From IMG/VR virus record IMGVR_UViG_3300045988_069267, positions 1 to 5,883 of that record: a DNA stretch of 5,883 nt; one strand, written 5' to 3'. The notes beneath the pieces were generated by a model. It was not told the DNA's origin, ran no database searches, and was given only the letters and a program-made list of their open reading frames with translations. This document shows positions 1 to 5,883 of this stretch, in pieces (the first letter of the stretch is position 1; each line of letters begins with the position of its first letter). The DNA comes from a virus. The translations under genes and the position numbers were made by a program.

Positions 1-55
1 CTTGTTGTAGTAGTAGTTGTAGTAGTGTTGAAAGTGTTGAAAACTCGTTTTTTTA
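1..55. repeat. Terminal redundancy (assembly overlap of a circular genome). It is identical to 5829..5883.
   Basis: Base-by-base comparison shows that cttgttgtagtagtagttgtagtagtgttgaaagtgttgaaaactcgtttttttta occurs at both window ends. The offset is 5828 nt. Confidence 0.95.
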
Positions 56-192
56 ACGTTACTACGTTTATTTATTGTCTTTTTGCCTGTTGAAAACTTT
101 GTTGAAAACTTGTTGAATTGTTGAATGTTCGTCATTTTAACGAATTTCTTTGTGCAACTTGTTGTTGAAAACCTGTTGAAAGTGTTGAAAAC
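26..192. repeat. Iteron-like array with nine direct copies of the core TGTTGAA (mostly TGTTGAAAAC) in non-coding DNA.
   Basis: Copies start at 26, 35, 88, 100, 111, 119, 163, 174 and 183, all in the same orientation. A 21-nt direct repeat, tgttgaaagtgttgaaaactc, occurs at 26..46 and 174..194. An adjacent GTTGTAGTAGT tandem lies at 4..14 and 16..26. Confidence 0.85.
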
Positions 193-235
193 TCAAGTTT
201 TCCACATTCTCTTTTTTTTGTACTATTGTTTCTTT

Positions 236-3024: not shown

Positions 3025-3444
3025 TCACTGTTTCGGTTCGTTTTCCTTCACCTCCTCCTCTTTCTCTTCCTGCTTCGGCTGTTCGGTTTGCTGCATCTGT
3101 TTCAGCTGTTCCATTGTTTTGGCTGCAGCTTCGGCCTTTTCGTGCATCGTCATGATATCCTTCGGCAGATTTTCAAGCTCGGTGCCTTCGGTGTATACCA
3201 TGCTTTTTGCTTTGATGCTGGTGTCCCCAGCTTCCAGCCGTGCGATTGCGCTTGCAAGGTCGTAGCCCTCGCCGGCTCGCTGGATTTTTTCATATGTGTT
3301 TTCATCCGGCTGCTGGATGTAGTCGGTTGTGCCGTTCGGTCGCTTTACCGCTTTCCACGTTGGTTCTGTCTTGCTGCCTGGATTGTTTGTTACTCTCTCT
3401 GTCGGCAGACCGTAGTACCTTACCATTGCATCAGGATTTAACAT
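3025..3444 (-). CDS. Putative internal scaffolding protein (VP3-like). The function is tentative.
   Basis: This is a 139-aa ORF with AAGGAG (3457..3452) 7 nt upstream of the ATG. It lies immediately upstream of VP1. It has a highly acidic, Glu/Lys/Gln-rich C-terminal tail (QQTEQPKQEEKEEEVKENEPKQ). The segment VYTEGTELENLPKDIMTMHEKAEAAAKTMEQL loosely resembles the Y.D....P.D..A....A...F..L region I recall in gokushovirus VP3. Confidence 0.5.
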   Translation of the reverse strand: MLNPDAMVRYYGLPTERVTNNPGSKTEPTWKAVKRPNGTTDYIQQPDENTYEKIQRAGEGYDLASAIARLEAGDTSIKAKSMVYTEGTELENLPKDIMTMHEKAEAAAKTMEQLKQMQQTEQPKQEEKEEEVKENEPKQ

Positions 3445-4769: not shown

Positions 4770-5774
4770 TCATGTTTTCGGTTCACGCCATTTTTGCTTT
4801 AGCTTGTCTTTTTCTTTTTGAATGTTGAGATAGGTTTCATAATCTACGCTTGTGCTTTGTTCGAGATTGTTTAAACTTTGTATTGCACTGCGTCTGCGTC
4901 TGGCTCTTACCTCTCTCAGCTCGTCAGAATGTGCCTTAAAATAGCTTTCTGTGTCTTGGCTGGTATCCTTATCTAGAATCTTATCAAAATAGCGTGGCGG
5001 CCTTTTCTCGCGGCCTCCTGCACAGATGATGCTATCTGTTTTTAAGATTTCATCTTTGTGTTCGTTCAGGTACTTTTCGCCGATACCTTTTGACATGATC
5101 CTGAACTCAGGCTCTCTGCCTTCCATCCAGTATTTTGCTGCTTGTTCTGCACCTATGGCTTTTTTGTTGACGTACTGCGCCACATATGCAAAGCTGCCCG
5201 GCTGTGCTGGTGAAAAGTCTATCATGCCTTTGCCCCAGATTTTTTCCAACCATTCGCTTTTAAAATAGCTGTTGCCTTTTTGGTTTTTGTACCATTGCGC
5301 ATCCGGTGGTTTTAGTCCAAATACTATTGCATGATAGTGTGGTCTTTTTGTTCTGTCGCCGTATTCGGCCGCTAGGAAATATTTTATTGGTTTCTTGTAT
5401 GCTTTCCGTAGCCGTTTTATAAACAGCTGTACGTCTCGCTTATTCACTGTCTGGCTTTGAATGCTTCTGTAGCCTTTGATAATCTCTCCGTATGGGATGT
5501 GTTCGTCGTCATAAGTCAGTGTCAGAAAAATCACATCGTCCCACTCTTTTGCTTCCAGTTCTATTCTTGTTGCCCATTGGTCTGCTATCTGTTTTCGGCA
5601 ATATTCGCATTTACCGCATGGTAACAGTGCGAATTTTCCTTTTTTTACTCCGTCCATGATGTTCATTTGCAGTCCTTGCTTTGATAGGTTTTCCAGACTT
5701 CCCCATAGCTGCGGTTTCTTCGTGTCCATCTGGAATACTAATGGTTTTGTACATGGCATTTTTGTTACTGGCAC
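4770..5774 (-). CDS. VP4: Rolling-circle replication initiation protein (VP4, phiX174 A-protein superfamily, HUH endonuclease).
   Basis: This is a 334-aa ORF. It shows motif I FLTLTY, motif II RPHYHAIVF (the HUH motif) and motif III YVAQYVNKK. Motif III is a double-Tyr active site, almost the same as the phiX174 A sequence YVAKYVNKK as I recall it. A Cys cluster LPCGKCEYCR is also present. The track start at 5774 is a GTG with AAGGAAG (5784..5778) just upstream. The ATG at 5759 (MPCTKPL...) is an alternative start. Confidence 0.93.
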   Translation of the reverse strand: MPVTKMPCTKPLVFQMDTKKPQLWGSLENLSKQGLQMNIMDGVKKGKFALLPCGKCEYCRKQIADQWATRIELEAKEWDDVIFLTLTYDDEHIPYGEIIKGYRSIQSQTVNKRDVQLFIKRLRKAYKKPIKYFLAAEYGDRTKRPHYHAIVFGLKPPDAQWYKNQKGNSYFKSEWLEKIWGKGMIDFSPAQPGSFAYVAQYVNKKAIGAEQAAKYWMEGREPEFRIMSKGIGEKYLNEHKDEILKTDSIICAGGREKRPPRYFDKILDKDTSQDTESYFKAHSDELREVRARRRRSAIQSLNNLEQSTSVDYETYLNIQKEKDKLKQKWREPKT

Positions 5775-5828
5775 AAGCTTCCTTGTCTATCTTGTGCCAG
5801 TTGACACCTCGCTTTCTTTATATATTAA

Positions 5829-5883
5829 CTTGTTGTAGTAGTAGTTGTAGTAGTGTTGAAAGTGTTGAAAACTCGTTTTTTTA
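5829..5883. repeat. Second copy of the terminal redundancy, identical to 1..55.
   Basis: Exact 55/55 match to 1..55. The window ends inside the repeat, so this is wrap-around of a circle rather than a biological terminal repeat. Confidence 0.95.

Follow-up and report, generated by a model that had tools for sequence, protein, structure and literature searches.

The window examined here, a stretch of 5,883 nucleotides (nt) from a virus (IMG/VR record IMGVR_UViG_3300045988_069267), contains a 5828-nt circular microvirus genome, with positions 1-55 identical (100%) to positions 5829-5883. An array of short repeats lies in the non-coding DNA between the genes for VP2 and the replication initiator Rep. 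We interpret this array and its flank (5813-5828 plus 1-206), with a probability of roughly 0.6, as a DnaA module of the oriC type that mimics host chromosomal origins in its grammar and would recruit the initiator DnaA to the duplex replicative form of the phage. On the + strand the module consists, in order, of an AT-rich stretch, a run of TAG trios, two tandem co-oriented boxes and two more box clusters. The grammar of the module, its conservation and its identity with host origins are apparent from sequence comparison, which makes it very likely that DnaA binds the boxes. That the module serves unwinding or replication, instead of titration or regulation, is the more probable view of its role, held with less assurance than DnaA binding, and Oscillospiraceae/Ruminococcus are the probable host group. 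Because the module is located on a microvirus genome, between VP2 and Rep and not flanked by dnaA and dnaN as a chromosomal origin of Firmicutes would be, it is best regarded as a mimic or variant of oriC and not as a chromosomal oriC.

In textbooks, Microviridae exemplify replication through a phage-encoded HUH nickase, to which such a module would add the chromosomal initiator. Our literature search, which did not reach most subscription journals, turned up no account of Microviridae with DnaA boxes or DnaA-trios.

Trios and Boxes in the Intergenic Region

The basal unwinding system of oriC combines paired DnaA boxes, a GC spacer, DnaA-trios and an AT-rich element, the trios having the consensus 3'-GAT-5' (that is, 5'-TAG-3') and binding DnaA-ATP as single-stranded DNA (Richardson 2016/2019; Pelliciari 2021). 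In Bacillus subtilis the unwinding scaffold reads 5'-TAGTAGAAGTAATAGTAG-GGCC-TGTGGATT-TGTGGATAA. Published criteria for such systems ask for at least three consecutive trios (NAN) and for boxes with at most two (better) or at most four (other) mismatches, the proximal box being separated from the first trio by a spacer, "previously named GC-rich region," that averages about 4 base pairs and for which the search program permits 0-16 nt.

The heptamer TGTTGAA occurs on the + strand of the window at positions 26, 35, 88, 100, 111, 119, 163, 174, and 183, with spacings of 9; 12, 11, and 8; and 11 and 9 nt. Further copies lie at 5854 and 5863, within the terminal duplicate, and at 1135, bringing the total in the window to 12 against 1.07 ± 0.99 expected; none of 200 shuffles reached 12. 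The initial annotation had reported the nine same-orientation copies, a 21-nt direct repeat bracketing them and a GTTGTAGTAGT tandem ahead of the array, and each of these is present: the 21-nt repeat TGTTGAAAGTGTTGAAAACTC has exact copies at 26-46 and 174-194, and the tandem is actually a run of TAG trinucleotides, with TAGTAGTAG matched 11 times in the window at one mismatch or fewer (0.45 expected). To that description we add the TAG nature of the tandem, an inverted tenth near-copy (TGTGGAAAA) and the reading TTCAACA that the heptamer takes on the coding strand. The duplicate of 1-55 at 5829-5883 is an assembly overlap that holds the trio run and the first two boxes again and provides no additional copy.

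Each element of an unwinding system has a counterpart in the module. The AT-rich stretch TTTCTTTATATATTAA (5813-5828, + strand; 14 of 16 positions A or T) directly adjoins the 5' side of the trio run and is a candidate duplex-unwinding element; in the window clade it is also some 40-55 nt upstream of Rep, whose start is on the opposite strand. Every aligned phage module, like the host oriC regions, has an equivalent AT-rich block 5' of its TAG run. Where the AT-rich stretch meets the trios lies CTTGTTG (1-7, + strand), an invariant, phage-specific block that reads AACTTGTTG together with 5827-5828; ACTTGTTGTAG is invariant in 14 divergent modules and absent ahead of the trios of host origins. 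Positions 1-25 read CTTG TTG TAG TAG TAG TTG TAG TAG, so that a DnaA-trio-like run of five TAG with two TTG interruptions extends over 5-25 on the + strand. Three consecutive trios (TAGTAGTAG) occupy 8-16, and TAGTAG occupies 20-25.

Immediately 3' of the trios and on the same strand follows the trio-proximal tandem pair TGTTGAAAG and TGTTGAAAA (26-43, + strand); its members are co-oriented, and their strand and polarity with respect to the trios are those of boxes 7 and 6 of B. subtilis. The two boxes have three and two mismatches, respectively, to the canonical box and zero to one mismatch to the box of the host lineage described below. The second cluster (88-127, + strand) comprises TGTTGAAAA at 88, TGTTGAAAA at 100, TGTTGAATT at 111 and TGTTGAATG at 119, spaced by 12, 11, and 8 nt. 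The third is the triple box TGTTGAAAACC-TGTTGAAAG-TGTTGAAAA (163-191, + strand), spaced by 11 and 9 nt. The tenth box is the inverted TGTGGAAAA (206 to 198, - strand), which differs from the canonical TGTGGATAA at one position. A hairpin with arms 178-193 and 196-211 can form between this box and the one at 183-191, but the inverted box is not conserved across lineages (38% column identity).

Conservation Among Gokushoviruses

The array is present at the same place, with 7-12 copies, in 49 IMG/VR contigs whose Rep is 91-98% identical to that of the window and in four GenBank genomes, and a DNA-pattern scan of viral contigs found it in dozens of gokushoviruses of 5.3-6.2 kilobases (kb). These distant carriers have Rep proteins 32-39% and VP1 proteins 39-49% identical to those of the window, and in their lineages the module is found downstream of Rep and its TGTTGAA copies are on the coding strand, such that both orientation and position differ from the window clade. 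Four clusters of Rep that are less than 40% identical have the same motif and spacings, and the spacing of the second box cluster recurs in viruses whose Rep shares only about 35% identity. Aligned with one another, 14 modules are collinear over about 230 nt, with the box columns and the block ACTTGTTGTAG..GTAGTAGTAG constant while the spacers drift; over the 13 divergent modules, the box columns match the window at 91% identity, the trio block at 84% and the spacers at 51%. One contig (our handle L012) encodes a Rep 97% identical to that of the window, yet has the module of another lineage, inverted and downstream of Rep (1570-2000), with a gap between VP2 and Rep of 103 nt. This pairing of a window-type Rep with a foreign module identifies L012 as a natural recombinant.

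Of 112 microvirus loci, 87 have the trio, spacer and two-box pattern, and many of the others are contigs cut inside the module. The relatives have uninterrupted TAG runs of three to six and spacers of GGCC, GGGG, GGGC, GGAG, GGTA, AGGT or GCAA. The window module reads TAG TAG TAG TTG TAG TAG, TGTTGAAAG, TGTTGAAAA without a spacer; L289-L302 have (TAG)3-5, GGCC/GGGC, TGTTGAAAC, TGTTGAAAAG (L289 being (TAG)5-GGCC); L120 has (TAG)5, GGTA, TGTGGAAAA, GTTGAAAAC; and L069 has TAG TCG (TAG)3, GGAG, TGTTGAAA, TGTTGAATA. Homologous positions of the phage modules are occupied by TGTTGAAAA, by TGTGGAAAA or, in L069 and L055, by the perfect DnaA box TGTGGATAA.

The distant lineages were found by motif search, and the presence of the module in 100% of them is true by construction. 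Under motif-blind sampling, 68 of 69 contigs of the window clade carry the module, while a clade of 33 contigs retrieved by a search seeded with a VP1 alignment (L303-L335; VP1 52-56% identical) has neither boxes nor a TAG run. Because the VP1 of this module-less clade is closer to the window than that of the distant module carriers, the module is patchy on the capsid tree. Poly-T and a conserved AGGTGTATAATA are all that the non-coding DNA of L303-L335 shows.

In GenBank, at least 39 gokushovirus records, sampled from the guts of humans, pigs, mink, raccoons, monkeys and dogs, contain the module. Almost all of these are unannotated at the module, the exceptions being a few "hypothetical protein" calls and one overlap with the Rep gene in phi-CA82. 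A 10,711-nt contig (L033) comprises two different gokushoviruses with a module in each and is probably an assembly join. A separate feature of the distant lineages is a stem-loop after the Rep stop (L072 at about 1230-1290, L120 at about 3090-3140, L059 at about 1600-1650, L069 at about 1390-1440), in which the loop CTATCAAGWA is conserved and the stems show compensatory differences from virus to virus; this structure may act as a terminator or as a nick hairpin. No counterpart of the CTATCAAGWA loop was found in the window.

Host Chromosomal Origins with the Same Motif

A scan for the three-box pattern covered 185,579 species genomes; the host figures that follow are among the 120 matches listed. 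About 25 of these are in Oscillospiraceae, Ruminococcaceae, Ruminococcus or Clostridia genomes, and nine lie between dnaA and dnaN, all in metagenome-assembled genomes (MAGs) of Oscillospiraceae, Ruminococcus or Clostridia. In one of the nine (L230) dnaA, dnaN and recF were confirmed by Pfam, and in the other eight the genes were identified by tblastn, with DnaA identities of 43-68%. The nine dnaA-dnaN regions contain 5-26 forward boxes each (8-26 in seven of the nine), and the unwinding grammar is situated near dnaN: ...GTATATATGTT (TAG)5 GGGG TGTTGAAAC TGTTGAAAAC in L177, TAGTAGTAATAG GGGG TGTTGAAAC TGTTGAAAAC in L200, (TAG)5 GGTA TGTTGAAAC TGTGGAAAAG in L183 and TAGTAGTATTAGTAG TGG TGTTGAAAA TGTTGAAAAG in L187. 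In a published table of predicted unwinding systems, the oriC of Ruminococcus albus 7 is given with DnaA boxes TGTTGAAAA-ACC-TGTTGAAAA, and the reversed string of TGTTGAAAA appears as the species-specific standard box for some taxa.

The sequence logo of the boxes from host origins (n = 132) hardly differs from that of the phage modules (n = 94), both being TGT(T>G)GAAA(A/G)(C/T)T. Box position 4 is T in 116 cases, G in 20, A in 1 and C in 0 across the nine host origin regions, and T in 109, G in 10 and C in 0 across 14 phage modules. The DnaA proteins of the nine genomes (L177, L200, L183, L261, L281, L187, L215, L230, L234) read RDHST(I/V/M)(V/T)(Y/T) where those of B. subtilis (8btg) and Aquifex read RDHTTVIH. 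The changed positions of the recognition helix presumably correspond to the base contacts T435 and H439 of E. coli DnaA, and the change is consistent with a shifted box preference, such that the lineage-specific variant TGTTGAAAA would change along with the helix. Since TGTTGAAAA is the box variant of the dnaA-dnaN origins of Oscillospiraceae and Ruminococcus, this group is the probable host of the phage.

Nucleotide similarity between phage and host is confined to box blocks. By blastn, only blocks of 19-36 nt are shared, the longest in the triple-box region of the window being a 36-nt match (97%) to L239, with further matches to L183, L200 and L221. The lack of extended homology led us to reject a recent horizontal capture of a host origin; similarity limited to such blocks suggests instead that the shared grammar was kept by selection. 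The genome matches were also considered as prophages, an explanation rejected because microvirus Rep, VP1 and VP2 are absent from all 120 genome loci listed.

The triple box TGTTGAAAACTNTGTTGAAANTGTTGAA(AA), spaced by 12 and 9 nt, also occurs away from oriC in L240, L198, L201, L219, L257, L274, L283, L284 and L248, and in L239 (3908-3938) a triple box lies inside a mutL-like open reading frame of 652 amino acids. These sites look like extra-origin DnaA-box clusters. TAG trios with TGTTGAAA box pairs were observed in two Anaerolineae MAGs (L173, L235) and a Mesoaciditoga MAG (L220), with no dnaA detected near these sites in the 8-kb pieces examined.

Proposed Function and Alternative Explanations

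We hypothesize that the module acts once the incoming single strand has been converted to the duplex replicative form. Host DnaA-ATP would bind the ten boxes cooperatively on the duplex and oligomerize from the trio-proximal pair onto the TAG trios, and the adjacent AT-rich stretch would melt, opening 5813-5828/1-25. The opened duplex could then admit the host helicase loaders, so that the replicative form is amplified in theta mode or maintained like a plasmid, or it could present a single-stranded substrate to the phage HUH Rep. A more speculative extension, which we regard as possible but doubtful, is that the duplex form is a DnaA-licensed minichromosome, in which helicase loading and theta replication proceed from a captured or mimicked origin. 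If true, the template could be amplified before Rep-driven production of single strands, or the phage could be carried like a plasmid in dividing Oscillospiraceae with no integration. The module suggests a second mode of replication or maintenance and a coupling of phage replication to the growth state of the host. It would also provide a testable prediction of Oscillospiraceae/Ruminococcus as hosts for abundant gut microviruses; to our knowledge, those of this group have no cultured host. Given that the box variant matches the DnaA of one lineage, the module would serve as a host tag, readable from sequence, for this large and so far host-less group of gut microviruses.

Action on the duplex, and not on the choice of the packaged strand, fits the occurrence of the module in both orientations and at two positions, its lack of excess folding (1-230 folds like shuffles, with z of -0.4 on the + strand and -1.2 on the - strand) and an unchanged strand composition. 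Genomes with the module on the same strand (n = 45), on the opposite strand (n = 58) or nowhere (n = 33) all have an AT skew of +0.48 to +0.53 at the 4-fold sites of VP1. The phiX174 nick site reads CCCCCAACTTG^ATATTAATAAC (CAACTTG^ATATTAATAAC) and shares only AACTTG with the module, which lacks the conserved sequence of about 30 nt expected of a phiX174-type viral-strand origin; no conserved AACTTG was found in the non-coding DNA of module-less gokushoviruses. A nick site within the module, whose orientation would set the packaged strand, was considered and is not supported by the constant 4-fold composition or by the module-less relatives. As a separate observation, the 4-fold sites of VP1 on the coding strand have an A content of about 0.37-0.41 and a T content of about 0.11-0.14 in every lineage. 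The coding strand of phiX174 is T-rich, opposite to these sites.

Several observations weigh against an oriC-type module. DnaA binding and unwinding are here deduced from sequence alone, the host is itself inferred, and we know of no need for DnaA in a microvirus that has its own HUH Rep. Within the window, the AT-rich stretch is only about 16 nt long; the TTG at 5-7 and 17-19 violate the rule of a central A in trios, which leaves three as the longest unbroken TAG run; the boxes are two to four mismatches from the canonical TTATCCACA; and the trio-to-box spacer of 0 nt, with no GC cluster, falls inside the range of 0-16 nt permitted by the program but is an atypical form. On the host side, most of the genomes are MAGs, the view that the boxes are cognate for the variant DnaA draws on covariation in nine genomes, and the occurrence of trio-plus-box sites in Anaerolineae and Mesoaciditoga MAGs means that the host assignment is not exclusive. 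Finally, the capsid-related clade of 33 contigs manages without the module.

Of the alternatives, the one that fares best, although we consider it unlikely, is a DnaA sink or a DnaA-responsive regulator, in which the boxes titrate or modulate host DnaA in the manner of datA/DARS or couple phage transcription to the level of DnaA. Ten boxes on each copy of a multicopy replicative form would hold much DnaA, and host genomes carry the same triple box off oriC, as is reported for the DnaA-box clusters of B. subtilis (PMC3245932). A regulatory role would fit the window clade, where the module abuts the upstream region of Rep, and other clades, where it precedes a TTGACA/TGnTATAAT promoter. However, neither a sink nor an operator needs TAG trios, fixed polarity or an AT-rich stretch, yet the trio block is conserved at 84% and ACTTGTTGTAG is invariant; nor is the position of the module relative to promoters conserved. 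An operator upstream of rep, as the initial annotation had also proposed, is unlikely to be the conserved function when most lineages carry the module downstream of rep in the other orientation. Unwinding is favored over a sink or operator because the trios, the trio-to-box polarity and the AT-rich flank are conserved and are needed for unwinding but not for a simple sink or operator.

A DnaA-assisted complementary-strand origin is considerably less probable. DnaA on the trios and the hairpin box of the incoming strand would here prime conversion to the duplex, similar to the A-site of the ABC-primosome. The hairpin 178-193/196-211 pairs TGTTGAAAAC with GTTTTCCACA and could thereby create a double-stranded box in single-stranded DNA, L059 has a comparable inverted pair, and DnaA-trios are single-strand binding sites. 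A conserved hairpin would be expected of such a site, but the column identity of 38% shows the inverted box to be unconserved, and the nine direct repeats cannot become double-stranded within one strand. Furthermore, region 1-230 folds like shuffles, the strong structure being situated in the GC-rich half of the intergenic region (z -4.86), and the module is found on either strand relative to the genes while the composition of the coding strand is unchanged.

Recognition of the direct repeats by another host regulator, either Spo0A or a response regulator of the OmpR/PhoB type, has little to commend it. The 0A box of Spo0A is TGTCGAA, phage phi29 uses 0A boxes to sense sporulation, and many Oscillospirales form spores. 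TGTTGAA is one mismatch from the 0A box, and the repeats are direct and spaced by roughly 9-12 nt. Yet TGTCGAA itself occurs 0 times in 14 phage modules and nine host origin regions, conservation extends over 9-11 nt as in a DnaA box, the boxes occupy exactly the trio-proximal places of DnaA boxes, and the recognition helix of DnaA covaries with the box.

The main idea of the initial annotation, a rolling-circle origin whose iterons the phage Rep (VP4) would bind, is now very improbable. The repeats are direct, short and clustered and adjoin rep in the window clade, and the invariant, phage-specific ACTTGTTG nearby shares AACTTG with the phiX174 nick site. Iterons specific to a Rep lineage should change with Rep, and the array does not: motif and spacings are identical where Rep is only 32-39% identical, and the covariation with Rep lineage that had been suggested as a check is absent, the module being collinear across Rep lineages and exchanged in the recombinant L012. 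The Rep-iteron reading is therefore not supported. The same motif also fills the dnaA-dnaN regions of host chromosomes, where phage Rep does not exist, and strand composition is independent of the orientation of the module. The broader claim that this is a real, selected, origin-like protein-binding array is borne out by the comparisons above, and a host protein had rightly been named among its possible binders. Lastly, a role in packaging, or as some different structure in the single-stranded genome, has in its favor only the long non-coding region within a very compact genome, and it is not supported given the absence of excess folding of 1-230 on both strands, the occurrence of the module in either orientation and the absence of any Rfam family beyond a spurious sub-threshold match to U4.

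Genome Organization and Related Arrays on Other Phages

All genes of the window are on the minus strand, and its GenBank relatives are human-gut Gokushovirinae. The Rep/VP4 gene (5774 to 4770, - strand) encodes an HUH-type replication initiator (Pfam PF23343 REP_ORF2-G2P, E 7.7e-21) and is transcribed away from the AT-rich end of the module. It is followed on the same strand by genes for a peptidase M15 (4344 to 3964), VP5 (3685 to 3431), VP1 (3008 to 1353; PF02305, E 8.6e-149) and VP2 (1314 to 445). The non-coding DNA from the VP2 stop to the Rep start (5775-5828 plus 1-444) is 498 nt long, in agreement with the initial annotation. The Rep reading frame begins with GTG at 5774, and most relatives align only from residues 4-6, near the ATG at 5759. 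Met6 (ATG 5759) may therefore be the true Rep start, in which case the intergenic region would be 513 nt.

The GC-rich half of the intergenic region (231-444, - strand) lies outside the box array and is strongly structured. As single-stranded DNA it folds with -49.9 kcal/mol (z -4.86; 0 of 200 shuffles equally stable) and includes a C6/G6 hairpin (307-323) together with a perfect 15-base-pair stem (332-346/352-366); this half may function in termination or as an origin for the complementary strand. When 5600-5883 and 1-520 were scanned for promoters and terminators, no match fell in the intergenic region. An Rfam search returned no family above threshold, its sole match being U4 small nuclear RNA at 81-164, over the box array (23.9 bits against a gathering score of 46; E 0.024), which we rejected as spurious and almost certainly due to chance. 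At the 3' end of VP2 (521-598), overlapping direct repeats of 12-45 nt (CTTTGGCTGC...) encode a low-complexity C-terminus of the KAAKDAAK type.

Similar arrays were observed on two non-microvirus phage contigs that are unrelated to the window and come from similar samples. L137 (1829-1968), which encodes tape-measure and tail genes, has 12 boxes in a non-coding gap, and about 35 boxes of both orientations, interspersed with TTTTCCACA, are spread over 1.1 kb of L153 (1150-2250). Their occurrence outside microviruses points to a host factor. The canonical-box form TAGTAGTAG-N2-6-TGTGGATAA was found in 28 viral contigs, none of them a microvirus. Large viral contigs of up to 161 kb (L337/L346/L357, L345, L361, L355, L360) carry canonical unwinding-type modules, for example (TAG)3 GGGC TGTGGATAA TGTGGATAAG with nine boxes within 400 nt, and neither dnaA nor dnaN was detected in the flanks examined. 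Host-origin-like modules may be more widespread on phages or phage-plasmids.

Comparison with Known Systems

The origin of phiX174 resembles the module in the hexamer AACTTG (phiX174 being nicked after the G) and in its AT-rich neighborhood. However, it is a 30-nt sequence inside gene A, whereas the module is intergenic, matches it over 6 nt and varies in orientation. Like the iterons of plasmids, geminiviruses and other circular Rep-encoding single-stranded (CRESS) DNA viruses, the repeats of the module are short, direct and clustered in non-coding DNA close to rep. A true iteron is specific to its cognate Rep and covaries with it, whereas the motif of the module is invariant across Rep lineages less than 40% identical and equals the motif of host origins.

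DnaA boxes are also present at the theta origins of plasmids and phages, including P1 oriR, F, pSC101, R6K and RK2, and these likewise are mobile replicons with host DnaA boxes beside their own initiator gene. At such origins one to a few DnaA boxes assist a plasmid Rep that binds its own iterons, and DnaA-trios are not known there. The module, by contrast, has ten boxes together with trios and no separate iterons, and is found on a rolling-circle single-stranded DNA virus. The DnaA-box clusters of B. subtilis and datA/DARS of E. coli are similar in their closely spaced, co-oriented boxes, and window positions 163-191 are nearly identical to the scattered triple box of Oscillospiraceae. Unlike the module, those clusters have neither trios nor an unwinding element, and they work through titration or nucleotide exchange.

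Compared with the basal unwinding system of oriC, the module differs in its location on a 5.8-kb single-stranded DNA phage that has its own HUH Rep, away from dnaA and dnaN. The window itself lacks a GC spacer, has TTG interruptions and adds the phage-specific ACTTGTTG, and its likeness to an unwinding system is read from nucleotide sequence only. Yet the elements of the module have the same order, strand and polarity as those of the basal unwinding system. Its relatives have a G/C-rich spacer of 4 nt and a step between boxes of 8-9 nt, like B. subtilis boxes 7 and 6, and its boxes match those of Oscillospiraceae/Ruminococcus oriC.

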